Below are positions 1 to 62,420 of a DNA stretch of 64,000 nucleotides, one piece after another. This DNA comes from Amphiscolops sp. MND2022 (Eukaryota): contig OZ076409.1 of NCBI GenBank assembly GCA_964187785.1, positions 31,064,001-31,128,000 on the forward strand, written 5' to 3'. The notes beneath the pieces are model-generated. The model did no database searches. It was not told the DNA's origin and worked only from the letters and a program-made list of their open reading frames with translations. Positions within the stretch are counted from its first letter, which is position 1, and each line of letters starts with the position of its first letter. The translations under genes and the position numbers were made by a program.

Positions 1-612
1 CGTTTTCCATGAAAGTACGAATGAAACTTTCCTCAAGCCAAATGCAGCCATGTATGTGGGCCATACCACGAAGTTGCCATTTCCACGCGATAAGTGAAGT
101 ACATCACAGGAATAGCTCCGTCATATTCTGCTAGCACGATTGTCCTAATGAAACACTGAACTCTTTTGTTGAAGACGCGAGTAACTTGGACCACATGTTT
201 GCGAAGAATCTCTGATCTTGAAATATGCTTCCGAGCAATAAATTCTTCGAATGGAATTCCATCAATAAAAACGCTATTCACAACTCCATCATCACAGAAT
301 TGCCGCTGGAAAGAAATCTGATGACCCAACGACTTTAGAATGCTAATGGACACTTCCGGCCAACGGGATTCAGCGCAAGAAAGAGTGAAAAACATGAAAA
401 GGACCCAACTGTTTAATTTTTGCCAACATTTCCGATCGCGCAACTCTCCAGTATTGACTGGTACCTCGAAGACGTTGAAACACTGACTGAACGTCAGTTT
501 GATTTACGCCATATAACCCATCACCTTGCACTCCAACTATCCCTTTCCTCAAAAAAAGGTCGCAACTTTTCTCTAGTTGTTCTCTCTCAACTCTTTGCTG
601 TGCTGCAAACAA
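1..612 (-). pseudogene. Helitron/Helentron RepHel, Rep (HUH endonuclease) region, frameshifted; runs off window start
   Basis: Stitched frames read LRGTSQYW...EMLAKIKQLGP / FFTLSCAESRWPE ... YFTYRVE / WQLRGMAHIHGCIWL. These are Rep motif 1 and the HUH (H-I-H) motif 2 typical of Helitron Rep. There are at least two frameshifts. Confidence 0.9.
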
Positions 613-1900
613 ATACGTTCCAATTTATTTCGGACAGACATTGCAGGCATTTTACCATTCTTTAACGACTTCGAGCATGCCCAGCACACGTGAAGAGTCT
701 TCTCTGGATTGCTGCTATACAATTTCTGTTCAGGCAACAAAATATCATCATCGTAATTCTTCCATTCCCGCACACATTCCTCGAAAAGCACCCTTTCATA
801 ACTAGAACAAACGAAAATCAATCCTGGAATCATTTGACTTCGAAAACAAAGTTGAGAGGCAAATGTTGGCATCAATTGCTCGAATTCACGAAGTATTGAT
901 TGCTCCTTTTCAAAAGTGTTTCCATTCTGGAGGACATGGGATTTTATAGCTTTTAATTGTTTGACCTGAATGCCACGTTTCGGCATATTACGGTACTTTT
1001 CAGCGAGCTGACTTCTCAAAGTTGTTTTGTACTTTTCTTTCAATTGCACTCTCAGATAAGCTCGATAATTCTCCTTCAGCTGTGATTCCAATACTTCAGT
1101 GTGTTTCTGTTTCAATCGCATTCGAAGATGATCTTTGTAACGACGTCTCAGCTTGAAGGCCAACTGTGACTTGTATTTCATCTGTAGAACTTCTTTCAGC
1201 TGCAGTTTGTATTTCATTTGCATCTGCTCTTTCAACTGGAATTTGTATTTCTTTTGCATCCATTCTCTCAATTCCAGCTGGTATTTCAACTTCATACGTT
1301 CTTTCAGTTGCATTTTGTATTTCAACTTCATACGTTCTTTCAGGTGCATTTTGTACTTCAACTTCAAACGGTCTTGCATCTGCATTCTGTATTTCAATTG
1401 TAAAGGTTCTTTAATCGAAGTTTGATATAATTGTTTTCTTTTTTCTCTCGTTTTTCTGTAGTAGGTCTGATTTTTTTTCAAAACTGGTTCCTTTCCATTA
1501 ATTTTCCTTTCCACTTGAGATTGACTTCGTATCCAGTTATTAAACGCGCTGTAGTATACTTTACAGGTGCTTCGAGAAAAATGTGCTTTCGCGTTTTTCT
1601 GATCCGTGAAAATTGAACCGCAGGAAACACACGGTTTGCTGAGGGATTCTTCGAAACTTTCGGCAAAATTGAGGGACTCACTATTAGGCGTTGTGATGCA
1701 GCGAGTGGCATCTACCTTTCCACATTTCGTTCGTTTCCTGTGTCTAGCGAGATGTGACTCAATGAAAAAAACTTTGCGACAAGACGGGCAAATCCATGAA
1801 GATTGAGTGCTGTGAGGATTGAGAGAACTCGCAGAACATGACCAATTTTGATCGTCCGAGTGAGCTTGCGAGAGACCAAATGATTCAGGACCGTTTATCA
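573..1900 (-). pseudogene. N-terminal part of the Helentron RepHel: two C2H2-like fingers, 12-aa K/Q/E repeat, pre-Rep Cys motifs
   Basis: ORF 573..2093 contains CPSCRKVF..HLARH and CVSCGSIF..KAH, then (KYKxQLKExMxL)n, then FVCSS.ERVLF and HVCWACSKSLKNGKMPAMSVRNKL. The last resembles the CxxC..GKxP..N motif ahead of Rep in Helentron-type proteins. Confidence 0.7.
1150..1410. repeat. 36-bp coding tandem repeat (~7 copies)
   Basis: Recurrent ttgtatttcaacttcatacgttctttcag-like units; the protein period is 12 aa (LKYKMQLKERMK). Confidence 0.85.
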
Positions 1901-2610
1901 AGTACATTGAAGGGGAGGCCATGGGGGAGACAAGCATCATGCATGATAGATCGATAGAAGTTACTCGATGAGCAGTCGTTGTGGAACTGTTGACTTTCGT
2001 ATGAGTAATTGTTAAGGCAGAAATCGATTTGGAGTTCTCCCTGATCAGAAAGAACGAAGCAGTCAATGATACTAGCTGGTATTTCCACAACAAATCCTTT
2101 TATTCCTGGGTACATGAACTTATTGAAAAGAAACTGAGTGTGACAATCCACAGAGCTGAAGCCAACGGGGGTTCCCATTACATGTGTGTGAATCCATCCC
2201 AAAACTTTCCCATGGAGACATAGTTTGTTCAAAAAGACAGATGAATCCATTCCGTCGATTCTTAAACATTCAAATTTTTCTCGTTCTCAAAAAGCGAGAG
2301 TATATGATCCGAAGCATACAGTAAGCTAAGCATTAGGGTTCTGTTCTAAACGTTCTCAAGTAGACAAATTTATGAAGAAACAATGCGAAACGTTTTGAAA
2401 CTTACCAATGTCTTCGACGTGAGTGTAAGACGCTGATTGACAGGGCAGGACCATATCTGTGACAATCTCAGTAGCACCATTTTCCTTCCCTACAAAGAAG
2501 GCCAGTAACTCGATATTGTTACCTTTCTCGTCAACGGTTGCAACCGATAAATTCAGGAAACGGATGAAATGTTCATGTGGAAGACAGAACATAGATCTAA
2601 AAGAGAGCAA
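1885..2610 (-). pseudogene. JAMM/MPN+ (AMSH/STAMBP-like) metallo-deubiquitinase domain, two exons, co-linear with RepHel
   Basis: Exon 1 is LPHEHFIRFL..NIELLAFFVGK..VTDMVLPCQ, with a GTAAG donor at 2405. Exon 2 is VLGWIHTH..FSSVDCHTQ, matching the JAMM E...HxH-x7-S-x2-D pattern. The acceptor near 2261 is out of phase or mutated. Confidence 0.75.
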
Positions 2611-3152: not shown

Positions 3153-3859
3153 TCAGTCCAATCTAAAGGCAGCAAACTTGTTGATGACGCTTTCAAGTAT
3201 TAAAAAGTTCAAATTATAGTTCGACAAAGGGTCGTAAAAGTTATCAGCGCAGTAAAAGAGAAACGGAACTTCGCAGTAATTGTAAGAACCGTTCGTAGAA
3301 TTCTCCAAAAGAAGTTCGTTTGTTTTTTCGAGTTCCGCGAAACAACTGTCATCTGATGGACGTATCAGAACAACAATGTGGACAAGTTCAACTTTGTGAC
3401 GCATAAAATCTGCTAAACGTTGAAGTTGCTTATACACCTGGAAAAGAAAAGCTATAACATAATTTCAAAGAAATAGTTACTGAGCAAAAATTTCAACTAT
3501 ATCTTGAAAACAAGTTGGTAATATCCGATCCGAACACGTTAGATATAACCGAAAGATGCTATGAGTTCAAATAAAATAAATCACATGAGAAAAAACGTTC
3601 GAAGAACTCTTGCAATTAGTAAAAAACATTGAAAAACAGGGCTTAAACCCGATTTCCTGGTCTCGGTCTCTCCACCCCAAAATTTGAGGTCGTTACCGTC
3701 GATAAGAAAAATAATGTGGTCATACTGAGCATTTCGCAGTGTCCGCAGCAGTTTTCTTATAGCGTAATCATCGGTGCGTGCTGAATCAAAAACACGAACA
3801 TCAGTTGAAGGCAATACAAAACCTTCAGCCATAGAATCAGCAATGAGTAAAACTTTCAT
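3153..3859 (-). CDS. SGNH/GDSL hydrolase-like gene 1 (two exons; probably catalytically degenerate)
   Basis: Exon 1 is MKVLLIADSM..IIFLIDGNDL (block I and III like). Exon 2 starts after a ttttccag acceptor at 3437 (VYKQLQRL...). The donor is uncertain and there is no clear DxxH in block V. Confidence 0.6.
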
Positions 3860-6733
3860 CAGGAAATTCAAATTGGAACTGAAAAGATTAAATAAATACA
3901 AAATCTCGTTGAAAATTCAAGTCACCGCCAAAATTTGCCATCATATTACTCTAAAGTGATTGAAACTAATGCACAACGAAAAACTGAATATGTTCAAAAT
4001 AGTGCGGACGTTTAAAAGCTAGTTGACAAAAAGACTAGCGTAGATAAACTACTGCTATTTTCAAAAAACTCCCTCAATATTTTGCACAAAAGGTTTCCGC
4101 AAACATTTTAGAAAATAGAAACATTATGATTACTGAAAAGAGTTGAGGTAAAAAAACAAATTCAGGTAAAACAATAACAACGCAATTCAGTTGATTTAAT
4201 ACAACAATTAATTTTTACCAGGTAGAAATTAACTTGATCAAAATCAGTATTTGAAAAAATTTGAAGGTTTGTAGTGTTATTTTTGGTACAAGAAAAACCA
4301 ACTAAACAGGCGTCGCAAATGAAAGGTGTGGCGTAGGCTTTGCAAAAAGAACAAGGAAACATCGAAAATCATTTGGTCAGTTGCAGGAAGAGTGCCAGAT
4401 GTAAGAACACCACGCGATGCATTTGGTATTCCACAAGAACCATTATTGAGCACACGACGAACAAACAACACCACGCGGAGCTTTTGGTGTCGTTGTATAT
4501 TATTTTGATAGATAGGTTCGTTCCAGAGAGAAAGTTGTACGCAAACTAGGAATCAGCTTCAAAACAACAAGAAAGGTCACAATTCACAGATAAAAACTGA
4601 ATACACCAAAAAAATTAAACAACACAATGAACAAACTAATTTAAAATGTAAACGTTACAAAAGGAATAAAAGCAGCTGCGTAAGCGATTCTTTGAACCAT
4701 GTTCTTTATGAAGAACGCTACCAATTCCGCAAAAATTCTACTAAAAGAAACGTAAAAGCGGCAAAACCGAACGTACGTAACAAAAGCATCAACTCATGCT
4801 GCTTGTAATTGACTAACTTTTACATGTTTTAGTGATCACTATCACTTGTGAAGAATTCTTTATAGAGATTGCTTCTCCTGTTTCGGGACGATTTTCGGAT
4901 TTTCTCTGTGAAACATTCCGCTATCTTGGATTTCTCAACACCCTGTTCGGAAACAGGAAGTTGAACTCTTCCTGCAGCTTATTGATTTTGTTCAACATCA
5001 GGTATGGTGCAATGGAGTTCATTCGGGACAATTTCGTTCCCTTTTTCAATATCATCGTGATCTTCTTCTATAATGGGCAAGGCCGCAATAGCGTCGTCTA
5101 CAGAGCTGCCTCCAAAAGAAGCGTAGGATATATTATCAGTAGCAACAGTTCCGAATGTGGAGGTGGAGCAGGCACGTATTGTGCCTTTAGCTTTTCTCGA
5201 CCAGGCACATGTTCTGTCTTTTTTCTTCTTCGAGGTTGCAACAGAACCAGAATTAGGCGTGACAACCGTTTCTCGTTTACTAATTTGTGGTGTCTTTGAG
5301 CTTTTGCCGGATAACAATTTTTTTGAACGAAGAATTTGGAGTGCTCTCAATCGATTTATTTCAGAGCGACTGGAGGACTGATTATTCGAAGATTCGATTT
5401 CTAGCCTGTTTTTCACTCGAGCAGCTGTGTTTTTAGCATGGGACATTGCTCTATCGATGCCAGACAGCAGCAGTTTCTCACCATCGAAAAGAGCTGGACA
5501 GTCTTTAACACGAGACGATGTGGGTCGCTCTATAATGGCATTCCTGAAAAGCGCTCTGGCTGTAAAGAAATATCGTGCATTGTCTCAAGTTCATTGAGCA
5601 GTTTTGAGACAATTGATCGGTCGGCGGTACTATGAACTGCAGCCATGTCAGCACTCTAAAACGTAACCGAACTGTAGGAGGAATTGCACAATAATTCAAT
5701 TTGAAGAATCACGGAAATGACAAAAAACTAATATGATCGATTGCGCAATTTGAAATCGTTGTAAAAAAATAGAGTGATTGTTCATTGTAAACGTATTCAT
5801 TCTCGAACGACTGGTTTGATAGTGAAAAAACTGCGATACGCGATTAAGAATTTTCTGCGATTGCGCCATTTCTGGAGAAACAAACGAAAACCTTGTAATT
5901 CATTACTTGACAAACGAAAGTAGAATATTTTTCCATGCCTTCGTTGGATATGCCTTCTCATGAGCACTATTGAATGGTCATCAACGTTGTAACACAGCCT
6001 CAATAAAATGTCCGTGATACTTATAATAATTGTATTTAAGTCTCTATTGACGACAGCTAACAAAAAAGTTTCGACTTGAAACATTTGTACGCCGCCGTTG
6101 AAAATTGAATGCACTTGCTAAAGCTTGCAATGAAAAAATGACGAAACAACAAAAATGTTCAAAAACGTTTTCCAGATTGATATAATTGAGGCATTATTCT
6201 AAACCATATTTTTCAACCAGCACACGCGAAGCATTTGGCCAGTCAATCAATACGCTCAGAAAATTGCCGGAAGTTGCTAACAAACCAAGTATCAAAAAAC
6301 TGCCTCTTTTCGAAAAAAAAGCGAAAGCAAATAATCGTTAATCGACAACTTGATATACACAAAACTAATCAAAACCTATTTGTTGTAAATCATCAACAAC
6401 AGCTCAACAAAACATGCAGGCGAATTCAAAATGTATCAATTGTAATCAGTAATAATAATAATTGTAATCATAAAAAAATAATAAATGATCAAACACACAA
6501 GTGCTCAACAAAAAAGACAGTGAAGTCCAAATGTAACAATTGTTACCAATAACTCTCAAACAACAATAGAATATAAAAAAAACACAATGCTAACCAAAAC
6601 AAGGCAGTGAAATCCAAATTCCAACTGAACCAAATGTTACCAATGTTTTTAAGTGAAAATTATCAAAAACTCCGCACCAATCAAGTTTTGTCTTTCTGAA
6701 ACCTGTTATTTGCACACAACAGTGCTTCAACTT

Positions 6734-7604
6734 TCAATGTCCCTCACTAATCGGGCTTTTCCCATGGTTCTTAATCATGAGTACTTTCTCGTGAATCAAG
6801 CGGGTGAATTGACGACATCCTCGTTCATTGATATGTACTCCGTCAACGTTCAATAAAAATTTTGTGTTCCCACTGAAATAATTCCCAATCCCGACATATC
6901 TATAGGTTTGTTTCAAACAACCTAACTCCTCGGGTTGTTGAATGAATGTGGAGATTGTCTCTGAAAATTCTTCGGTTTCACCAGGTGAATCTGAACTGTA
7001 CCATCTACGGGGTAGTCCGATGACAAACAAAGCAATTCCGTAATTTGCGTTTAGAGATTCAGTCAGGTCATCCACACGATCGATCACCTAAACTTTTACC
7101 AATTGCAAAATAAGGGGAGCAATCTATTTCAAAACTCAAAGGGAACTACGAACCGTAACCGGTCATCCATATTTATGTTTTATAATGATGGTAACATGTG
7201 TCAAATTATAATACGCACAATCATCAATCAGCACACGCGGAGCATTTGGCCAGTCAATCATCATGCTCAAACATGCTAAAAAGTGAAAACTTTGAAAGAC
7301 TTACTGTCAACGTTGACTCTACAATGTCTGCTTTCCAATCATGGAGGTTGTTACCTCCTAGCAGTAGACACACCTTAATGTAGTTTTCGATTTTCTCATC
7401 CATCATTTTCAGGTATTCAGCAATGTCCTGGACGCGGGCGCCCGCTATCGAAACACAATCATATCGTTGGTTGTTTATGTCTTTGAGGAGACTACTCCCC
7501 ACCACCAGCGTCTCATTCGAATTGTCCTTAGACATCCATTGCCGTACCCGAAAAGACTTTGAGCCAATTTGGCTGTAAGTGATCGTTTCAACCATATCAG
7601 ACAT
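6734..7604 (-). CDS. SGNH/GDSL hydrolase gene 2, intact, join(7604..7305,7087..6734), ~217 aa
   Basis: Motifs are VVGSSLL (block I Ser), IAGARV (II), LLLGGNNL (III) and DGVHINERG (V). A canonical phase-0 GTAAGT...TTTAG intron at 7304-7088 joins ESTLT|VIDRV in frame. Confidence 0.8.
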
Positions 7605-8204
7605 CTTAAAATAGAATATGAATGTTAAAGCCAAATAGTAATTTGAATCAATGTAGGTAGAAACATCTGATAATGCTATTGAGTGGAACACCTAAAAACG
7701 CACGATTCGAACTAATCAAAAAGAAAACGCAAAAAGGAAACCATTAAGTAATATATGATTTTTGAACTGATAAGTGAGACAACCATTAGGAAATACCATT
7801 TGTTAAGCAATAAAAAAATCATTCATCATAAACTAAGAAGCTCAGTTTGGAGAAGCAATAAACAATCGGTCCTTAATTAGTTTTTATTTGCCTCACCGCC
7901 CCTTGAGGCAGATCTACACCTTTTGCCTCGGGTTGACATTCGCAACCGTCAGCGAGGTCCATGGAACCCCCTCTGAAAAGAACAGGGCCAAGAAAAAATA
8001 CTTACCTTTTGCAATTATTTCGGGGTCCCGACTGTAGACGTAGCTTTCACTAAACATACTTCAACGCGTTTATGTTAATAGAAAAATTTTGAACAAGGTA
8101 GAAACGGTTCAATACTGAAAATTTTTATTTTTAACATTCTCGAAAATTGCTCTCAAATGTCTACTTTCAGGTGTCATCAGTCCATCATTTCTGCTTCCAA
8201 CGTC

Positions 8205-8765
8205 TCCAAACATATCTAAGGCTCAAAAATAGCAAAAGGACTTCAATGTGTCAAGTACTCTCCTCTACAGTACCCGAAAAAAAACTCAAAAGGACTTCAA
8301 TGTGTCAAGTACTCTCCTCTACAGTACCCGAAAAAAATTTCCAAAATTTTCTTGAATTTTGTTGAAGTTTCTGGTAAGTCGCATTGTGCCGAAAAATGTG
8401 AAAGGGGCCCTTTGGGAGTTTTTCAACATCCATTCATTTGCAAAATAGAAAAAAATGAAGGGTGGACCCTTTGGAGACATTTTTTAAAAAAAATTAAAAT
8501 TGTGCGAAAAAAGTCTCACAAAGCGGAAAAAAAGCTGCTCAAAAAAGTTTTGGTCAAGGGCGGGACTCGGAACCATGTCCTTCCGCTTGGCAGACCTCAA
8601 AAAGTCGTAACCTCTATGCCAAATGCCAGTGACGTAGTGTGGCACTGTTTAGTGTTAGTGCCGTTAGTGCCGGTCAACTTATAGAACTTATAAAATCTGT
8701 CAGTTCGTTGGTCTTAAAAAAAGTCACTACTATAGTCTGCGTTTTTCTACGAAAAGCGCCGACCG
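8205..8765 (+). mobile_element. Non-autonomous interspersed repeat (HINE/DINE-like), copy 1
   Basis: Shares catatctaaggct.aaaaatagcaaaaggact...cagtacccgaaaa and the 3' hairpin tagtctgcgttttt-ctac-gaaaagcgc.gac with the inverted copy at 49870-50238. It has an internal ~54-bp duplication at 8233-8336. Confidence 0.7.
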
Positions 8766-8769
8766 AAAA

Positions 8770-22081: not shown

Positions 22082-23689
22082 TTTTGCTGCCTTACAGAAA
22101 GTAGCTTCGGCCCAAGGCGAACTAGACTTTGCAGAAGGTTTCAAAATTTGTTACTTCCAAAGTACATTACGGAAATTCAAATGAATATCTTGAAAATCAG
22201 TTTTTTTTAAAAGAAAAATTAGTGATAGCGTTAGCGGACTCATTTTGTTGTAGCGATAGCCATTAAATCGAGCCATTAGCCGATTAGCAGTCAGTAGTAG
22301 GAGAAATCCCGTTCCTGATATAAAAAAAATTTAAGTTCGTAAAATCATTAAAATTAGTCATTTTCACAAAATATCAATCAAATCATTAAAATTAAGCATC
22401 TTTTTCAAGGCAAATCATCAAAAATTAGCCAATTTTCACTACTAAAAAATAACATAAAAATCGATGAACAAAATTTGTCAAAAACTTTGTCACAAGGAAA
22501 AATTCACTAACCTCCATTACGCATTCGGTATGCGAAGCTGCTCTACGCAAAGCGCCTTCGGTATGCGAAGCCAGGTTTACTGTGAATGGTAAAGCTGTGA
22601 ATTTTGCTGTGAATGGTGTGTAGCAAAATTTTTTGGAACGAAAATAGCATTCAAGTGGAAACAAGTGTATGGTATTAATATAAAACTGGAATAACATCAA
22701 GTGGAACGTCACATGCCAACGGCGCTTCGCATGCCAAAGGCGCTTCGTATGTTGAATTTTTCGAGACAAATGAATTTTCCGAGACAAATGAAAAAACCCA
22801 TACAAAAATCTCAAACTTTAAAAAAACCGATACGAAAATCTCAAACTTTAAAAAACCGACACAAAAATCTCAAACTTTGAAAAACCCATACATATATCTC
22901 GGAAAAATGTTCAAATCCATATATGGAAAATTTTTATTCCTGATATTAATACATGGGAAAAAATAATTTAGACAAAATTCACAGAAACAAAAGTTGTAGC
23001 TAATCAAGTGTTACACATATTTCGTTACTGAGTGTTTTCTATAGAATCAACCCACTAATTACCAGGTGCCAAAACAGGTGGGAGAAAACGGGTTTTCCCC
23101 AATTTCTTGAGACTGACTCATTCCAGCGCAATGACACAGGAGATCAAAATTGTTGACAAAAACAAGATACACTGTTTTCAAAAAGAAAGGTTTCTGTATC
23201 TTGGACCCACTGATTACCACCTGCCCCAACAGGTGTGAAAAATTGGTTTTTCTCGAAATTGGTTGGAGTAAGACAGTTGTAAATTAGGTCCACTCTCATA
23301 TGTGATCTTTCTTATGGTATACTCAGCTTGTATGTGACCCGACAGGTGTTGAGATCAGGGTTGACCTTGAAACTTGCAAGATCAAAGGAACTCGCTCAAC
23401 CGTTAGTTTTAGCGTGATGACTCATGGGACCTAAAATGTAGGGCGTCAGAAAATAAGTCTCCCCACCAAATTTCATTTCAGTACTGAAAACCCACTGATT
23501 ACCACCTGCCCCAACAGGTGTGAAAAATGGGTTTTTCTCGAAAATGGTTGGAGTAAGACTAGTAACAGTTGTAAATTAGGTCCACTCTCATATATGATTT
23601 TTATTATGGTATACTCAGCTTGTATGTGACCCGAACAGGTGTTGATATCAGGGTTGACCTTGAAACTTGCAAGATCAAAGGAACTCGCT
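22082..23689. repeat. Tandem duplicate (offset 1621 bp) of host flank + TSD + Polinton left end
   Basis: 22082-23398 matches 23703-24988, including gcagtc|AGTAGTAGGAGAAATCCCG at 22293 and at 23914. Confidence 0.9.
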
Positions 23690-25481
23690 CTTCAAGGCGC
23701 AGTTTTGGCTGCCTTACAGAAAGTAGCTTCGGCCCAAGGCGAACTAGACTTTGCAGAAGGTTTCAAAATTTGTTACTTCCAAAGTACATTACGGAAATTC
23801 AAATGAATATCTTGAAAATCAGTTTTTTTAAAAGAAAAATTAGTGATAGCGTTAGCGGACTCATTTTGTTGTAGCGATAGCCATTAAATCGAGCCATTAG
23901 CCGATTAGCAGTCAGTAGTAGGAGAAATCCCGTTCCTGATATAAAAAAATTGAAGTGCGTAAAATCATTAAAATAAGTCATTTTCACAAAATATCAATCA
24001 AATCATTAAAATTAAGCATCTTTTTCAAGGCAAATCATCAAAAATTAGCCATTTTTCACTACTAAAAAATAACATAAAAATCGATGAACAAATATTATCA
24101 AAAACGTTGTCACAAGGAAAAATTCACTAACCTCCGTTACGCATTCGGTATGCGAAGCCAGGTTTACTGTGAATGGTAAAGCTGTGAATTTTGCTGTGAA
24201 TGGTTTGTAGCAAAATTTTTTGGAACGAAAATAGCATTCAAGTGGAAACAAGTGTATGGTATTAATATAAAACGAATAACATCAAGTGGAACGTCACATG
24301 CCAACGGCGCTTCGCATGCCAAAGGCGCTTCGTATGTTGAATTTTTCGAGACAAATGAATTTTCCGAGACAAATGAAAAAACCCATACAAAAGTCTCAAA
24401 CTTTAAAAAAACCGATACGAAAATCTCAAACTTTAAAAAACCGACACAAAAATCTCAAACTTTGAAAAACCCATACATATATCTCGGAAAAATGTTTAAA
24501 TCCATATATGGAAAATTTTTATTCCTGATATTAATACATGGGAAAAAATAATTTAGACAAAATTCACAGAAACAAAAGTTGTAGCTAATCAAGTGTTACA
24601 CATGTTTCGTTACTGAGTGTTTTCTATAGAATCAACCCACTAATTACCAGGTGCCAAAACAGGTGGGAGAAAACGGGTTTTCCCCAATTTCTTGAGACTG
24701 AGTCATTCCAGCGCAATGACTCAGGAGATCAAAATTGTTGACATTAACAAGATACACTTTTTTCAAAAAGAAAGGTTTCTGTATCTTGGACCCACTGATT
24801 ACCACCTGCCCCAACAGGTGTGAAAAATTGGTTTTTCTCGAAATTGGTTGGAGTAAGACTAGTAACAGTTGTAAATTAGGTCCACCCTCATATGTGATCT
24901 TTCTTATGGTATACTCAGCTTGTATGTGACCCGAACAGGTGTTGAGATCAGGGTTGACCTTGAAACTTGCAAGATCAAAGGAACTCGCTCAACCGTTAGG
25001 TTTAGCGTGATGACTCATGGGACCTAAAATGTAGGGCATCAGAAAAAAAACTACTCACCAACTTTCAACTCAGTACTAAAAACCCATTGATTACCACCTG
25101 CCCCAACAGGTGTGAAAAATGGGTTTTTCTCATTTTTCCCGAAACTGAGTCATCCTACAATACCGACTCGCGAGATCAAAGTTATAGACAAAAGTAAGAC
25201 AAGCTTTTTTCAAAAATGAAATTTTCTATAACCCAAACCCAGCAATCAGCACCTGTCAAAACAGGTGTAAAAATAGGTTTGCTCCTTTTTTTTGAGACTG
25301 GTTGGTCCTACGGTGAAAAGTCAGGAGTATAAAATTTTAGATATCCAAAATATGAACAACTTTTTCCCTGACAAATTTTCACTCTTGAATCCCAGGTTTA
25401 AAAAATAAAAAAATTTTCACCAATTTTTTGAAAAATTTTTGTTGAAACATTTTTGGTTAAACTATTTTTTCAATAAAAAAA

Positions 25482-52691: not shown

Positions 52692-52747
52692 AATAGCGTT
52701 CAAGCTATACACGATTCACACCAAAGAAGAGAAAGTAACCATTCAAT

Positions 52748-55700
52748 ATGGACGAAAACACGGGAGACGGAGAGAACACACAGACGTCAACGGGAACACA
52801 ACGAGACGGACAAACGTTACCGAACGACACAATGAACAGGACGGCAGACCGGACCTGCACCCAGAAGCTCACCATTCCCACGCTAGAAAAGCAAGACCAA
52901 GCCAATGCAAACATGTGGTGGAGAAAATTCGTCCAATATATAAAAATGACGAAAGACATAGACTTGTCAACCATGACGAACAGCAAAGAAATCCTACCAC
53001 AATACCGTGAACAACTCGAAACAGATATAAAAGACATTTTTATCTGGGCAATCGGACAAAATGCTATCACGGAGATGACAAAGACGGTCAGGGAAAGAGA
53101 ACCGAGCTCATTACCGCTATACAAACTCTACACACTCTTCCGACTACACTTCACCCCAGAGAGGAACGTACACCATAGCAGAGCCGATTTCTTTGATTTG
53201 AAACGGGAAGACGGCGAAACTGCAGCAGATGTATGGAAACGGATATTAGAAGTGGAAAAGAACTGCGAGTTTGAAACAGTTACCGCAGCAGAGCTCTTAG
53301 CATCAAAATTTTTGTCACTGATCGGTAAATCAACCGGTGACTACGACTTAAAAAAGAAAATTAGAAAGAGTGATATGTCGGTAGAAGCCATAACCGATGC
53401 AATACATGAGTATATGTACGAAAAATTAAACGACTCACCTGAAACAGAGGAAGAGAAGAAAATCCGATATGTAAACAAACGAAAAACAAAAACCACAAAA
53501 GAACAACCAGAAAAACCGGCAAAATTTAAAAAGATTGACTGCAACCGTTGCGGAGCACCGAACTGGTCACGTCAACATGAATGTCCCGCCAGAGGAAAGA
53601 AATGCGCAAAATGTAGCAAAATTGGCCATTTCGCTAAATGCTGCCGCGCAAACAAAAGAGTAAACCACTTAATGGAAGGTGAAACAAGCAGCGCAGGTGA
53701 AGACGACTGGACACCGAACACAATCCATTCAGTAAAACAAAAGATACATTCAACCCGGTCGATGAGCAACAACGGACCGGAATTCTTCACAATTACCGCA
53801 TTGGTTAACAACCGACCAATAAAATTCATAATAGACAGCGGTTCACCAGTAACGCTAATACCAAAATCACAATTCAACAAGTTAACACCGTTACACCCTT
53901 TAGAAACCGAATACCGGGACGTGAATGACAACCGGATACGATTTGAAGGGAAAACAACCGCGAAAGTAGAAATTAACGGAACACGAAAAGAACTGGAGCT
54001 TCTAGTAACAACCAAGAAAACAAACCCCCTGCTAGGTTTGGATTGGATGAAAAAATTGGGAATAACGCTGGAGACCGGTATGACCGTCTCACAAATACAT
54101 CGAATAAAAGAAGACACAGATGTAACAAAATTAAAAACAAAATTCAAAAAGCTGTTCAATGAAAACCATACAGTAAACGGGTTAGAAGTGAAAATACAAC
54201 TGAAAGAAAATGCCAAATTGATACAACAGAAGGGAAGACCCATACCGATACATTTGCAACAATCGGTGGAAAAAGAAATAGAAAAGTTAATAAAACAAGG
54301 CCACATTGAAAAGGCCAACAATATTGATGAAAATTGCTTCGTGAGCCCAGCAGTCATCACGGTAAAGAAAGATAAATCCGTAAAAATTGCGTTAGATTCA
54401 AGAAAGCTAAACGAAATAACCGTGAAACGAAAAGCTCAAATGCCAAACATGGAAGAGCTAATTTCGAGAATATCGAGAAAAATAGCAGACGGTCCAGCAG
54501 ATGAAATCTGGATTTCCAAATTCGATTTAGACTATGCTTACGGTCAGCTCATACTTTCAAAATCAGCCAGAAACTTGTGCATATTCGCTGTAACCGGAGG
54601 AAACTTCACCGGTTACTACCGCTTCCTAAAAGGATTTTACGGGTTAGCGGATATACCGACGATATTCCAAGAAAAGATCGACCAAACACTGGAAAACAAA
54701 CATCCAGCATGGCTAGACGATATCATCGTGGTAACGAAAGGATCCAAAGAAGAACACATGAAAGAATTAATTGACGTTCTAACCAAACTCGAAAACGCTG
54801 GATACAGACTGAGTGAGACAAAATCCGAATTTTTCAAAACAGAAATTGAATGGATCGGTCACCGGATAGATCAAGCCGGAATCCGACCGTTACAAGACAA
54901 ACTACTGGCTATAAAAGAATTGAAACAACCGAACAACGAAAAGGAATTAAAATCCTTTTTGGGAGCCATCCAGTACTTGTCAAAATATATTGACAACCTT
55001 TCCGCCCAAACCGATAGTCTGAGACAGTTGCTGAAAAAAAATACCAAATGGCTCTGGACGGAAGAACATACACGGGCTTTCGAAAATTTAAAACAAAAGA
55101 TCACGGAAATACCGTGTCTAGCACATTACAACTCCGATTATCCAAACGTGATAACAACCGACGCGAGCACAAAAGGCCTAGGGGCAACCTTATGGCAAGA
55201 ACAACCGAACGGAACACTAAAACCCATTGGTTTTGCAAGTCGCTTCCTATCAGACACAGAAAAAAAATACGCCATCAATGAACTTGAACTACTGGCAGTA
55301 GTTTGGGGCCTAGAACATTTCCGTCTATACATTTATGGTAAACCTATTAAGCTCTTGACGGATCACCAGGCATTAGAACCATTAATTAAACGAAATCGCT
55401 CCAATAAAACATATAGCGCACGCTTAACACGGTGGTTGGACCGGTTAGCACATTTCACGATCAACGTAAACCATATAGCAGGCAAACACTTAGCACTCAC
55501 GGATTATCTCAGCAGAAATCCGGTATTACCACCACAAGCGGACGATACGTACGACGAAGAATACGTAATCAACAATATCATTCCACACTACAGCTTCATC
55601 TCCAAATACGGTTGCCTTAGCAACCATGCGAGCCAATCAGAAAACGGTACCGAGATAAGTGAACGCAAATCGAACAACGAGCCATCGACAAACGACACGC

Positions 55701-58381
55701 GTGAACAAACTGCCATTGATTGCCTTAACAGCGCCGTACACACACGCTCAAAGCCAAACAAATTAAACAACCTAAAGCATACCACATTAAAAATGGATGC
55801 TAAAACGATCGAAAACATCGAAGCAAGATTTAATTCCGCTGAAATAACCGAGCTAACGACTCGGTGGAAAGAAATTGTCAAACCCGGAATTTACCGCATG
55901 ACCGGGGGGAGATGGAAACGCTACCATGAACCTAAATTCCTTCGCAACGAGAGGAAAGTCATAGAGGAACGACTACAACAACTTACCAGTAATCGACAAC
56001 CAGAAGACCTTCGACAAATTATCGGACCGCAACACAAAGGGGGCTATCAACCACAAACCGGTCACTCCGAGCAATGGACAGTGGACCCATATTGGGACAT
56101 GGACCGACCAACCCCAGTTCAACCGGACAAACCTGGCCCATCCTCCGCACCAATCCCGATGGAAGAAGGTGAGATTGACTCGGAAACGGACCAAGACCCT
56201 TCGGTCCTAGAGGTGCCAGCAATAAATTGGGCACGATACGTCGGGGTAAAAAGTGTCCAGTACGTAAAGATGGGACACGCACCAAGAGTCGCAGCAGAAG
56301 AGCGAAATCAATGGAATCTCGAACACGCAGTGCGGGAGACAGAAAAGAACTTCTCCACGGATTTGCAGCTATTGATGAATGAGACCACAAACGACCCCAG
56401 CTTGCTAAAAACCCTGGTATGTCTCGAAAGACAACAGCACGAAATGATACCGGAGGAATATCAAACGGTCAGAAGAAAACTATCCAGCCGGTTCGGTCTT
56501 GTTTTCATGGAAGACAGAATTATAGTACCAAAAAACCTCCGAACCACAGTCATCAGCCTTTTGCACAAAGGACATCCAGCCATCAATAAGATGACTCTGG
56601 CAGCTCGACACTTCCGGTGGCCGAAGATGACAGAAACCATACAGAAAAAATGTGAAACTTGCATCCCCTGCAAAATGTCCGGTAAGAGCATAAAACCTAA
56701 CATACCCAGCACGGAAAAAAATAACCTACCCCCGGTGAATAGTCCGAACGAAGAAATCCAATTGGATTTCATCGGACCAATCACGGATAATAACCGTCGA
56801 TTTTATATATTACTATCCATTGACCGGTACAGTAAATGGCCGGCAGCCAGTTTCTGCAAACACACCGACGGGGAAACGGCGGTAAAATTTCTTGAACAAT
56901 ATATTCAACTGAACGGTATACCAAAGACAATTAGAACCGATAAGGCGACTGCGTTTACGGGCCGCACTTTCCGCAATTTCTGCAAAAAACACTACATTAA
57001 ACTGATCTACGGAACACCGTACATCCACACCCCCACAGGCTTAGTAGAAAGAGGGGTCAGAACTCTGAAAGATAATCTTCTAACGAACATTAAGGCCGGA
57101 GAACGATTCGGAAAAGCTCTAGACTTGTCATTAGACGTGATGAGAAAAACACCTCACACGAAACTAAAAAAGTCCGCATTCGAACTACATTACGGTCGAA
57201 AACCAAACACGGAAATTTCTAATCTGTTAAGCTTAGATAACTTGAAAAATCTAACAAAGAATTCCATTTCAGCGAAACCAGATACCTTACAGGTATATTC
57301 ATTCAGCGGAGTTGGCGGTGTCTCCGACCAGCTACCGATGAAGACAAGAAAAAGCGATAAAGGAGTTAGTAACCACCCTTTCCTTTTCTTAGAAAAAAAA
57401 CATCACAAAACAAAGTTCGAAAGTGCATATACAGATAAACCGAATATAGCTATTTCGGAAACGAACCATACCGTAACAACGCCAAACGGAAGAACAATAC
57501 ACAAGAAATCTATTAGTAAACCCATCTGTAATTTTAACCAGGAATGCAACAACAACAGAGGAACTGGGCCGAGAGGGCCAGACGGCCGGTTTACAAGATC
57601 ACCATCAAAACCGAAGAGGGCATACGTGATCGAATCAGACACCGAGACACCGCTACCAGAAATCAACAGCCCAATCACCACGGACCAACCGGACAACGCC
57701 ACGGTGAGAAACGGTACGTATGGCAGAGGCAGACCAGTGAAACTAATACGAGACCGGAGAAACTCAAGCCCCCACCAATCCCCACCAGGAGGGACGGGCA
57801 GCACTGGCCCACTTACCATCATCGCAGCCAACATGACAGACACGGAGATCAACCGTGCTATCGAAGACGCTAGACAAGCGAACGATGAACTTTTTATCAG
57901 AGATGATAATGGTAAGGTGTTTAAAAATCTGACTTCTTTTCCTAAAACGGGGGAAGAGAACAACTTTGAAAATTCTGAATTAGACTTGATCAGTAATCTG
58001 AGCTCTAGCACTGAATTAGAAGCAGATATTAAACACGAAGAAGAAAAAACAGTACGCAGATCAAAAAGACTAACAAAAACCAACCCAATTGTTAGATATA
58101 ATAACCCGGTATGTCATGATTACAGGAAACACCGTAGAAAGGCTGAACCTGAACCAAATGGAAACGGAACCAAACAACCTCAACTAGCCCATACAACGGA
58201 CAACAAACTGACGTCACGGACAAACACTCACCGTGACAACCACACAAGCGAGGATCGGTCATCCGTCCATAAACAACTGGACCATTGGAGGAACTACCGC
58301 CATACAGCAGAAGAACAGAAACCCATTGGCCGAACATCAGCCAATAGTGAGGGGGGAAATGTAGAGAGTACAGACAATTAA
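52748..58381 (+). CDS. Gag-Pol polyprotein (1877 aa): Gag with Zn knuckles, aspartic protease, RT, RNase H, integrase
   Basis: CNRC..HECPA..CAKCSKIGHFAKCC; IDSGS; WLDD; TDAS..ELE..TDH; HKGH..CETCIPC; QLDF/RTDK/LVER. Confidence 0.97.
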   Translation: MDENTGDGENTQTSTGTQRDGQTLPNDTMNRTADRTCTQKLTIPTLEKQDQANANMWWRKFVQYIKMTKDIDLSTMTNSKEILPQYREQLETDIKDIFIWAIGQNAITEMTKTVREREPSSLPLYKLYTLFRLHFTPERNVHHSRADFFDLKREDGETAADVWKRILEVEKNCEFETVTAAELLASKFLSLIGKSTGDYDLKKKIRKSDMSVEAITDAIHEYMYEKLNDSPETEEEKKIRYVNKRKTKTTKEQPEKPAKFKKIDCNRCGAPNWSRQHECPARGKKCAKCSKIGHFAKCCRANKRVNHLMEGETSSAGEDDWTPNTIHSVKQKIHSTRSMSNNGPEFFTITALVNNRPIKFIIDSGSPVTLIPKSQFNKLTPLHPLETEYRDVNDNRIRFEGKTTAKVEINGTRKELELLVTTKKTNPLLGLDWMKKLGITLETGMTVSQIHRIKEDTDVTKLKTKFKKLFNENHTVNGLEVKIQLKENAKLIQQKGRPIPIHLQQSVEKEIEKLIKQGHIEKANNIDENCFVSPAVITVKKDKSVKIALDSRKLNEITVKRKAQMPNMEELISRISRKIADGPADEIWISKFDLDYAYGQLILSKSARNLCIFAVTGGNFTGYYRFLKGFYGLADIPTIFQEKIDQTLENKHPAWLDDIIVVTKGSKEEHMKELIDVLTKLENAGYRLSETKSEFFKTEIEWIGHRIDQAGIRPLQDKLLAIKELKQPNNEKELKSFLGAIQYLSKYIDNLSAQTDSLRQLLKKNTKWLWTEEHTRAFENLKQKITEIPCLAHYNSDYPNVITTDASTKGLGATLWQEQPNGTLKPIGFASRFLSDTEKKYAINELELLAVVWGLEHFRLYIYGKPIKLLTDHQALEPLIKRNRSNKTYSARLTRWLDRLAHFTINVNHIAGKHLALTDYLSRNPVLPPQADDTYDEEYVINNIIPHYSFISKYGCLSNHASQSENGTEISERKSNNEPSTNDTREQTAIDCLNSAVHTRSKPNKLNNLKHTTLKMDAKTIENIEARFNSAEITELTTRWKEIVKPGIYRMTGGRWKRYHEPKFLRNERKVIEERLQQLTSNRQPEDLRQIIGPQHKGGYQPQTGHSEQWTVDPYWDMDRPTPVQPDKPGPSSAPIPMEEGEIDSETDQDPSVLEVPAINWARYVGVKSVQYVKMGHAPRVAAEERNQWNLEHAVRETEKNFSTDLQLLMNETTNDPSLLKTLVCLERQQHEMIPEEYQTVRRKLSSRFGLVFMEDRIIVPKNLRTTVISLLHKGHPAINKMTLAARHFRWPKMTETIQKKCETCIPCKMSGKSIKPNIPSTEKNNLPPVNSPNEEIQLDFIGPITDNNRRFYILLSIDRYSKWPAASFCKHTDGETAVKFLEQYIQLNGIPKTIRTDKATAFTGRTFRNFCKKHYIKLIYGTPYIHTPTGLVERGVRTLKDNLLTNIKAGERFGKALDLSLDVMRKTPHTKLKKSAFELHYGRKPNTEISNLLSLDNLKNLTKNSISAKPDTLQVYSFSGVGGVSDQLPMKTRKSDKGVSNHPFLFLEKKHHKTKFESAYTDKPNIAISETNHTVTTPNGRTIHKKSISKPICNFNQECNNNRGTGPRGPDGRFTRSPSKPKRAYVIESDTETPLPEINSPITTDQPDNATVRNGTYGRGRPVKLIRDRRNSSPHQSPPGGTGSTGPLTIIAANMTDTEINRAIEDARQANDELFIRDDNGKVFKNLTSFPKTGEENNFENSELDLISNLSSSTELEADIKHEEEKTVRRSKRLTKTNPIVRYNNPVCHDYRKHRRKAEPEPNGNGTKQPQLAHTTDNKLTSRTNTHRDNHTSEDRSSVHKQLDHWRNYRHTAEEQKPIGRTSANSEGGNVESTDN

Positions 58382-60307: not shown

Positions 60308-62158
60308 TTACGACCGTGTTCATTGAATTTTAGCTACTTTAGACCTATAGTATGGTACTGTACATTCAAATATAGATCGAATATAAGTCCTACACGACTG
60401 TGTTCATCGAATCTTAGCTACCTTAGACGTAAAGTATTGTACTGTATACTGAATGATAGATCCAATATAAGTCCTATACGTCTATGTTCATTGAATCTTA
60501 GCTACTTTAGACCTATAGTATTGTACTGTACATTGAAATACAGATCGAATATAAGTCCTACACGACCGTGTTCTTTGAATCTTAGCTTCTTTAGACCTAC
60601 AGTATGGGGCTGTATATCGAACGATATATCAAATATAAGTCCTACACGACCGTGTTCATCGAATCTTAGCTACCTTAGACGTATAGTATTGTACTGTATA
60701 CTGAATGATAGATCCAATATAAGTCCTATACGTCTATGTTCATTAAATCTTACCTACATTAGACCTATAGTATGGTACTGTATAGTGAAAGATAGATCGA
60801 ATATAAGTCCAATACTATCGTCTTCATCGAATCTTAGCTACTCTAGTCCTATATTATGGTACTGTATTTTGAAAGAAAGATCGAATATAAGTCCTATAGA
60901 ACATTGTTCATTAAACCTTAGCTACTTTAGACCTATAGTATTGTACTGAATATTGAAATATAGATCGAATATAGGTCCTATACGAAAGTGTTCATCGAAT
61001 CTTAGCTACTTTATAATATGGAACTGTATATTGAAAAATAGATCGAAAATAAGTCCAATACTATCGTGTTAAGCGAGTCTTAGCTACTTTAGAAATATAA
61101 TACAGTAATGTATATTGAAAGATAGATCGAATATAATTTCTATACGATCGTGTTCATCGAATCTTAGCTACTTTACACCTACAATATGGTACTGTATATT
61201 AAGAGATAGATCAAACAAAGGTCTCATATGGGTCTGTTCATCGAATCGTAGGTACTTTAGACCTATTGTATGGTACTGTATATTGAAACATTGATCGAAT
61301 ATAAAACCCATACGATCGTGTTCACTTAATACTAGCTACCTTAGACATATTATGATATATTTTAGACCTATAGTATGGTATGGTACTGTATATTGAAACA
61401 ATGATCGAATATAAAACCCATACGATCGTGTTCACTTAATATTAGCTACCTTAGACATATTATGATACTGTATATTGAAAGATAAATATAATTCCTATAC
61501 GGCTAGGTTCATTGAATCTTAGCTACTTTAGTCCTATAGTTTTGTACTGTTTATTGAAAGATATATCGAATATAAGTCCTATACGAAAGTGTTCATCGAA
61601 TCTTCGCTACTTTAGACTTATAGTTTGGAACTGCATATTGAAAAAAACAGATCGCATTTAAGTCCAATACTACCTTGTTCATCGAATCTGAGCTACTTTA
61701 GACCTATCATATGATACTGTATATTTAAAGATAGATCGAACAAAGGTCCTATACAGCTGTGTTCATAGAATCTCAGCTACTTAAGTCCTTTAGAATGGTG
61801 TTGTGAATTGAAAGATAGATCGAATTTAATTCCTATACGGCTGTGTTCATTGAATCTTAGCTACTTTAGTCCTATCGTATTGTATTGTAATGGAAAGATA
61901 AATCGAATCTAAGTCCTATACGAAAGTTTCATCGAATCTTAGCTACTTTAGAAATCCGGTATAGTAATGTAAAATGAAAGATAGATCGAATATAAGTCAA
62001 TACGACCGTGCTCATCGGTTCTTTACTATATTAGACCTATAATATGGTACTGTATATTGAAACATAGATCGAACAATGGTCCTATACGGCTCTGTTTGTT
62101 GAATTTCATCTACTATAGTCCAATAGTGTGGTACTGTATATTGAAAGGGAAGATCGAA
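60308..62158. repeat. 84-bp tandem satellite (~22 diverged copies)
   Basis: Unit cgac.gtgttcat.gaatcttagctactttagacctatagtatggtactgtatattgaaagatagatcgaatataagtcctata; starts at 60311, 60395 and onward. Confidence 0.95.
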
Positions 62159-62420
62159 TGGTCTTGTGATATAAACAAACGGAAACTATGTTGACAACTC
62201 AAACGAACTTCCAATCCAAGTTGAATTCAGAAGTTTGCACAGTCATCCGAAGAGTCAATATCAACAAGGAATCAACTTAACATTTCTACGTTGTCTATTG
62301 CAAGTGAAACAAAAGGATCTAGGAGTTGATAAAACAAAACCTGACTCAAAAACCGTTTCTATTATCATAACACTTTTTGACGATGAACGCTGTTGGACGA
62401 AGTTTTGCAGGAAACACGAA

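Follow-up and report, generated by a model that had tools for sequence, protein, structure and literature searches.

An AMSH-like JAMM domain fused to the replication protein of a Helentron family in Amphiscolops

The stretch of DNA analysed here, hereafter the window, spans 64,000 nucleotides of contig OZ076409.1 of Amphiscolops sp. MND2022 (assembly GCA_964187785.1, positions 31,064,001 to 31,128,000), and hosts at one edge a decayed Helentron whose Rep-helicase protein begins with a JAMM/MPN+ domain. Six-frame translation of window positions 1-2600 reveals on the minus strand, in this order, a first JAMM exon, an intron, a second JAMM exon, two fingers, a 36-bp repeat and the first half of Rep. 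Exon 1 (2406..2592, ATG at 2592) is preceded by a TTTTAG splice acceptor 4 bases upstream of the ATG, and encodes the catalytic Glu (IELLAF; ...IELLAFF...VEDIG) and the first half of the Ins-1 region. A phase-1 intron (2262..2405, donor GTAAG at 2405) splits the Gly codon of VEDxG. Exon 2 (1885..2261; translation GWIHTHVMGTPVGFSSVDCH) carries the HTHV-x7-S-xx-D core and the putative His/Cys/His/Cys ligands of a second zinc. The JAMM motif, searched as a degenerate 57-base pattern, has a single match in the window and none in 100 shuffled sequences. Two zinc-finger-like motifs, weakly matched by Pfam zf models, follow at 1563..1790 (1790-1722 and 1631-1563), and are found also at residues 234 and 283 of the fusion protein P0001. 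The 36-bp tandem repeat (1171..1412, 6.7 copies) lies inside a 508-codon frame and codes for a 12-residue, Lys-rich, KY-containing unit (LKxKYxxxLKE-like). Beyond it are the start of a Cys-rich/DUF6570 region (573..860) and the N-terminal half of the HUH endonuclease Rep (1..618), split over three frames, with an FTLS motif and the HUH motif GMAHIHG at 58-50. The remaining Rep, the Pif1 helicase and the EEP endonuclease lie past the window edge, in the adjoining 10 kb (G000:C1:31054001-31064000, locus L008), where the 3' terminus maps at L008:5530-5570. A probable 5' terminus, plausibly of the same copy, is found on the minus strand at 8725..8767, and consists of the subterminal inverted repeat GGTCGGCGC and an inner inverted repeat; its hairpin has a z of -2.0, 10 of 200 shuffles being equally good.

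The original prediction described JAMM, C2H2 fingers, repeat and Rep as co-linear on one strand, and separated only by an intron and frameshifts. Order and strand hold; the fingers are of CCHC type (CX2CX12HX5C), and the damage is more extensive than supposed. Some 240 codons (query residues 647-887) are deleted between window positions 621 and 618, which cuts off the Cys-rich region and has largely removed DUF6570. Compared with four sister copies, the acceptor of the JAMM intron is shifted out of frame by one base, and exon 2 terminates at a stop and a frameshift, the latter near 1890-1900, into the 508-codon frame. With the further frameshifts and stops it has accumulated, the window copy is dead. 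Pfam similarities of exon 2 (JAB, E=2.7e-4, 21.2 bits against a cut-off of 22.5) and of the window Rep (Helitron_like_N, E=1.7e-3) fall under the respective cut-offs, while the Exo_endo_phos match in the L008 piece (E=1.2e-6) exceeds it. Matches to FixG_C and other families, obtained when the 36-bp repeat is read in the opposite frame, have been discarded as repeat artefacts.

Exon 2, used as a query on the genome, matched 46 of 50 candidates. Two copies (C10 and C1), 99.5% identical within the frame, lie in stop-free frames of 2,304 codons, which lead from the initial Met of JAMM, across fingers, repeat, DUF6570, Rep and Pif1, to EEP; the unbroken JAMM-to-EEP frame counts 2,283 codons. Both contain Pfam matches to JAB, DUF6570, Helitron_like_N, PIF1 and Exo_endo_phos. 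Since two genomic copies keep one unbroken frame, the JAMM-Rep fusion needs no reconstruction, and the fusion proposed from the broken window copy is borne out: in the intact copies JAMM and Rep are not separate genes. The JAMM intron is missing from the subfamilies of both intact frames. Within the helicase, 69 nt bounded by GT and AG are absent from a distant relative, and probably represent an in-frame intron.

The element is a Helentron (HLE2), as it combines HUH Rep and Pif1 helicase with an EEP endonuclease, DUF6570 and subterminal inverted repeats. In P0001 Helitron_like_N and PIF1 exceed the Pfam cut-offs, and FTLS, GMAHIHG, YICDYYSK and the Walker A/B motifs are recognizable. DUF6570 (E=1.9e-13) and Exo_endo_phos (E from 1e-3 to 5e-3) are detected in the intact copies, in which Pfam finds neither VTD nor OTU domains. 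The C10 and C1 copies share a span of about 11 kb, delimited at the 5' side by TTTT-AGTCGGCGCC with an inner inverted repeat and at the 3' side by GGCGCCGACT, with T-rich flanks; T runs border both ends. Subterminal inverted repeats set in T-rich flanks are the Helentron layout (Thomas et al. 2014, PMC4067079), though those found here are 10 bp long, against the 12-15 bp published. The 5' hairpin is stable (z -3.7, not equalled in 200 shuffles). At the other end, the repeat is followed in most copies by a short palindrome, which folds no better than shuffles (z -0.5 and -0.6).

The association of JAMM and Rep extends well beyond the two intact copies. A Rep match on the same strand lies at most 10 kb downstream at 39 of the 44 merged JAMM loci. 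Conversely, JAMM lies upstream in 45 of the 54 Rep rows that are closely related, versus none of the 20 distant ones; 74 of 110 Rep rows entered this count, those left out being mostly second fragments at the same loci. Re-examination by profile of six Rep loci apparently devoid of JAMM revealed a degraded JAMM in one. JAMM elements form one group in both the Rep tree (support 97/94) and the helicase tree (98/98) of the genome, built on the 25 and 29 of 33 loci, respectively, which passed the coverage filter. The JAMM core is intact at 25 of 30 genomic loci fetched.

The JAMM motif itself had been taken as canonical, which it is not. The defining motif is ExnHxHx7Sx2D (PMC9313428), and elements host HxH-x8-S-xx-D, one residue longer, the extra residue lying between the second His and the Ser; of 159 proteins examined, 116 have the x8 spacing. 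In family proteins the residues described as catalytic in AMSH-LP (PMC9313428), five in number, are kept at 87-98% (Glu 39/45, His 132/135, His 128/134, Ser 132/137, Asp 133/137). Residues of the putative second zinc site are conserved at 98-100% (His 135/137, Cys 126/127, His 120/123, Cys 123/123). In the alignment His107, Cys148 and His160 match the His/Cys/His zinc ligands of AMSH-LP, and Cys163 is the putative fourth ligand; a His-Cys-His-Cys second zinc site is predicted.

Likeness to AMSH, part of the original prediction, is sustained by both sequence searches and predicted fold. AMSH-LP and AMSH are the top matches in PDB sequence searches, and MYSM1 and BRCC36 score far lower. An AlphaFold model from 83 sequences (pLDDT 95.6, pTM 0.91) includes the Ins-1 beta-hairpin; a first model from 13 sequences (pLDDT 83.1) had a weak loop at 98-101. 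Among the Foldseek matches listed, all those down to rank 23 are AMSH, AMSH-LP or Sst2 (E from 1e-14 to 7e-13), the next family following at 5e-10; AMSH, AMSH-LP and Sst2 come before Prp8, Rpn11 and CSN5, with TM values of 0.70-0.73 to AMSH/Sst2. When the first model was compared by VIA, AMSH gave Z 18.6 (rmsd 2.5 A over 167 residues) and Prp8 Z 16.6. The domain is accordingly predicted to adopt an AMSH-like MPN fold with the Ins-1 hairpin. The AMSH group (AMSH/STAMBP, AMSH-LP and S. pombe Sst2; PF01398; PDB 2ZNR, 2ZNV, 3RZU and 4JXE) is thus the best match in sequence and structure, and shares with the element JAMM the Glu/His/His/Ser/Asp set, the predicted Ins-1 hairpin and His/Cys residues which align with the zinc site of Ins-2. 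In contrast, identity is about 24%, spacing is x8, Val replaces Pro after HxH, the last zinc ligand is apparently a Cys (HxxC) in place of a His (HxH), and there is no MIT/USP8_dimer domain. As Pfam finds no USP8_dimer (MIT) in the intact copies, and the family makes up a separate 100/99 clade, the domain is AMSH-like, and not an AMSH orthologue.

This clade comes from a 60-row JAMM tree, in which the element family stands apart from AMSH orthologues and an exon of the host AMSH gene falls within AMSH. Being midpoint-rooted, and built without Rpn11, CSN5, MYSM1 and BRCC36 as outgroups, the tree does not name the donor. The host AMSH gene, at C5:48.86 Mb, is multi-exon, has the canonical x7 motif and differs from the element JAMM in intron positions. 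All this bears on the alternative that JAMM is a functionless passenger, either a one-off captured STAMBP fragment or an adjoining STAMBP pseudogene. Helitrons frequently pick up host fragments, and the window copy is degenerate. Yet intact copies share a frame, linkage holds at 39 of 44 loci, and the host gene is separate and left out of a clade which has relatives in other sources. Moreover, pN (0.17-0.47) is lower than pS (0.64-0.85) across all 45 JAMM pairs taken from the subfamilies; synonymous sites are close to saturation, and the 19 unsaturated pairs, for which dN/dS is computable, have values of 0.10-0.36. Judged from these substitution patterns, the JAMM domain is under purifying selection. 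A passenger origin is thus most improbable, and the neighbouring-pseudogene alternative fails.

The same architecture occurs outside this genome. When 1.84 billion representatives were searched with a profile, 642 matched at E<=0.001. HxHV-x7-[ST]-xx-D is present in 116 of the 159 proteins examined, which are the best 150 of the 642 plus 9 from a second search, a few belonging to the same species or close kin. P0028 (2,152 aa, ENA) is a complete JAMM-DUF6570-Rep-Pif1-EEP fusion 38% identical to P0001, and JAMM, finger and Rep lie in order, with one frameshift, in the metagenome locus L103. DUF6570/Rep continues in 17 of 24 family proteins of at least 450 aa. Sister copies, as well as metagenome loci L102 and L104, have the JAMM intron at the same position, and about 19 database proteins start at the corresponding profile point; because L102 and L104 share its codon and these proteins begin there, the intron is probably old, and would have been lost in intronless subfamilies. 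In a DUF6570 tree 23 JAMM-bearing sequences separate from six Helentrons of this genome lacking JAMM (support 90/89, long branches), a pattern consistent with one ancient JAMM capture, without proving it. A scan for the motif gave no match in viral contigs, none in prokaryotic genomes and four in metagenome contigs, and a fold search among viral proteins returned weak MPN matches (best E 3e-7, TM 0.58); no viral donor is therefore indicated. A word-index search with residues 1-200 of P0001, among proteins of 1,255-3,996 aa, retrieved none in 457 candidates, and is evidently insensitive, since P0028 exists and was not found. A second one gave four matches, three apparently from families of this genome or near kin, the fourth a Schistosoma AMSH. 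Matches in the ESM Atlas were limited to generic JAB clusters of prokaryotes/archaea (0.91-0.93).

Some relatives are arranged differently. In P0042 a family JAMM sits downstream of DUF6570, within the Rep N-terminal region, in another Helentron. In P0032, P0035 and P0052 it is followed by classical C2H2 finger arrays, without Rep, possibly as a result of host recruitment, or as cargo of non-autonomous elements. P0041 carries ahead of the JAMM the string GIERNPGP, presumably a 2A-like stop-go signal, and in P0133 and P0164 a JAB domain of canonical spacing is fused with a PHD finger. JAMM may occur in other mobile elements as well, since P0041, P0133 and P0164 resemble ORF1 layouts of non-LTR (long terminal repeat) retrotransposons. 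L103 carries upstream of JAMM, in divergent orientation, a 349-codon open reading frame (ORF) with a zinc ribbon (L103:2-1048, minus strand), which we take to be RPA-like.

Other deubiquitinases (DUBs) occupy the same slot within this genome. OTU precedes Rep in L076, in one 2,244-codon frame with RepHel, and a UCH (USP) domain is found upstream of DUF6570/Rep in L077, L081 and L083. L077, L078, L080 and L083 (G000 C4, C7, C4 and C1) make up a young family of Helentrons in which Rep is preceded by USP domains in tandem, L081 is a separate USP clade, and L079 has an OTU-like motif with no Pfam match. The original prediction cited OTU proteases as the DUBs of some Helentrons. This is correct, but VTD, USP and Ulp1 are also on record in Helitrons. 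VTD (Herpes_teg_N) and OTU Helentrons (PMC9741609, PMC4067079) have in common with the JAMM elements the Rep-Pif1-EEP polyprotein, DUF6570, subterminal inverted repeats, T-rich flanks, and a domain of ubiquitin-protease type ahead of Rep in the same frame; theirs are papain-fold cysteine proteases, as opposed to the zinc metalloprotease fold of JAMM. Similarly, HLE2 with UCH or Peptidase_C48 (PMC11417382) exemplify the stable capture of a deconjugating domain at a fixed place relative to RepHel, and the domains listed there are all cysteine proteases. The 20 domains listed by HELIANO (Li et al. 2024, PMC11417382) include OTU, Herpes_teg_N, UCH and Peptidase_C48, and no JAB; JAB, MPN, AMSH, Mov34 and JAMM have 0 occurrences in its supplement, Table S11 included, and JAB and MPN 0 in its text. 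No JAMM in a Helitron emerged among the top matches listed of a full-text literature search, Repbase, Dfam, the supplements of PMC9741609 and subscription reviews being outside its scope. This is apparently the first metallo-DUB found in the Helentron DUB slot, and apparently unreported before; no JAMM in that position was found in print, and, as the original prediction held, the capture is independent of that of OTU, because the fold is unrelated and the clade separate. The idea of exchangeable DUBs is itself already published.

What would the domain do? In vitro assays showed VTD domains of Helentrons to cut K48, K63 and NEDD8 substrates (Erven et al. 2022, PMC9741609); the authors suggest that VTDs keep the proteins of transposition from being degraded, a task which, in their view, DUBs of different classes can fulfil. 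Because OTU and USP share the slot in other clades, and Helentron VTDs are active and the classes proposed to be exchangeable (PMC9741609), the conserved JAMM probably works as an active deubiquitinase, in cis, upon the transposase complex, and we infer that it serves the same role as OTU. The Rep-helicase-endonuclease protein begins with a JAMM domain, probably a zinc isopeptidase, which would strip ubiquitin, in the course of transposition, off the transposase or what immediately surrounds it. The step protected would most likely be the covalent Rep-tyrosine-DNA intermediate, together with the loaded helicase. A host would treat these as a DNA-protein crosslink, and mark them with ubiquitin for proteasomal removal; on this general ground, the covalent intermediate could be the specific target. 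Linkage preference probably departs from the K63 rule of AMSH, because the proximal-ubiquitin loop, which differs from that of AMSH in the alignment, has an extra residue and does not keep two Phe, presumably contacts of proximal ubiquitin in AMSH.

Other functions must be weighed against a cis-acting deubiquitinase. Rather than on the transposase, the isopeptidase could be active at the target site on chromatin or damage signals, such as ubiquitylated H2A/H2B or K63 chains, in the manner of MYSM1 and BRCC36. The tethering of the domain to DNA-binding fingers and a basic repeat, the K63 selectivity of the enzymes closest in structure and the PHD-JAB proteins among the family-search matches fit such a substrate; yet OTU, USP and VTD domains of other linkage preferences in the same slot fit a general anti-degradation role better, and MYSM1 and BRCC36 score far under AMSH, which makes it unlikely. 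Slightly less credit goes to the cleavage of a ubiquitin-like modifier (NEDD8, SUMO), or of the polyprotein of the element: the active-site loop is altered, Helentron VTDs also deneddylate (PMC9741609), and Ulp1 domains are present in Helitrons, but fold and second zinc site favour the AMSH branch over CSN5, and no cleavage motif was seen. A catalytically silent ubiquitin-binding or scaffold module, akin to MPN-minus domains, might be suspected from the residue inserted between second His and Ser, and from Gln replacing Glu in 5 of 45 family rows. Silent MPN domains, however, lose catalytic residues (PMC9313428), and here the five positions are 87-98% kept across sequences about 20-35% identical; we regard this as quite improbable.

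Several observations weigh against an active deubiquitinase working in cis. Ubiquitin is not the sole substrate of JAMM enzymes, which cleave NEDD8 and other modifiers as well. By its sequence the element JAMM departs from the defining motif by one inserted residue, and Pfam mostly misses the family, JAB being detected at E<=0.001 in 39 of 83 members, with scores near or under the cut-off. A DUB is not evidently required, since Pfam finds none upstream of Rep in Helentrons L075, L079 and L085-L087. Because 7 of the 24 long family proteins show no similarity to Rep, two of them ending in C2H2 arrays, some members may have been recruited by the host or reside in other elements. The window copy, lastly, is dead.

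JAMM-Helentrons are real, conserved and widespread, have apparently gone unreported, and are notable for the change of enzyme class. A broader proposal, possible rather than probable, is that these domains constitute an ancient transposon-borne JAMM subfamily (HxHV-x7-S-xx-D, His-Cys-His-Cys zinc; >100 clusters at 50% identity), the first metallo-DUB of a eukaryotic mobile element, which would be active alone, be free of the K63 restriction of AMSH, and shield the covalent Rep-DNA intermediate from ubiquitin-driven removal. If so, the interchange of JAMM, OTU, USP and VTD in one slot would imply that rolling-circle transposition is limited in these hosts by a ubiquitin-based defence, which any deubiquitinating chemistry can answer. 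The ubiquitin/SUMO protease domains found on record in Helitrons (OTU, VTD, USP and Ulp1) are all cysteine proteases. Because a zinc enzyme of unrelated fold occupies the slot, shared ancestry or fold no longer explains it, which argues that selection acts on function, that is, on the stripping of ubiquitin. A single genome hosting JAMM, OTU and USP clades, and young, nearly identical intact JAMM copies, may allow a direct test of the role of DUBs in transposition. Divergent and probably stand-alone, the JAMM enzyme described here has an altered active-site loop, and may also be useful to study linkage specificity in a small, drug-relevant enzyme class.

Additional sequences accompany the JAMM frame. 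Most JAMM-Helentrons of this genome carry near the 5' end a non-coding block of about 700 nt (L052:7660-8393, G000:C10:45145159-45145892, and 39 further scored places), which is missing in the window copy. The block is 80-100% identical (all 40 scored matches, from 88 candidates) across subfamilies in which synonymous positions have reached saturation. RNAalifold on 15 copies proposes 168 pairs, 97.4% of cells being paired, with many G-U changes; ten pairs are changed on both sides, as in 3 of 500 shuffles, relatedness not being controlled. Folding z values are -3.9 to -4.9 on the coding strand and -2.8 to -3.7 on the other, and Rfam gave no match of note. The block is possibly a novel structured RNA. 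ORF-A (4979..5584, minus strand) lies upstream of JAMM, and is present in every subfamily examined (also at L052:9123-10000 and L013:829-1983), where the blocks AI.ERP...LFDGEK.LL..IDRA and GGSS.D..IA..PI are kept. Like the JAMM start, its start has a splice acceptor ahead; Pfam gave no match for ORF-A.

Three minus-strand ORFs inside the presumed window element (3581-3916, 6734-7087 and 7254-7691), without Pfam matches, feature GSS, GGNN/GND and DGVH strings, which we take to be blocks of SGNH/GDSL esterases. Because their 78 matches are spread over the genome, nearly all of them, by eye, distant from JAMM loci, these ORFs are no general part of JAMM elements, and are probably cargo of another repeat. 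Elsewhere in the window, an LTR retrotransposon on the plus strand (52739-58381) has a 1,880-codon open frame, in which gag zinc knuckle, protease, reverse transcriptase, RNase H and integrase motifs are discernible by eye. An 84-bp tandem array spans 60309-62159, and a block of 18- and 29-bp repeats is duplicated at 22712-22900 and 24297-24485.

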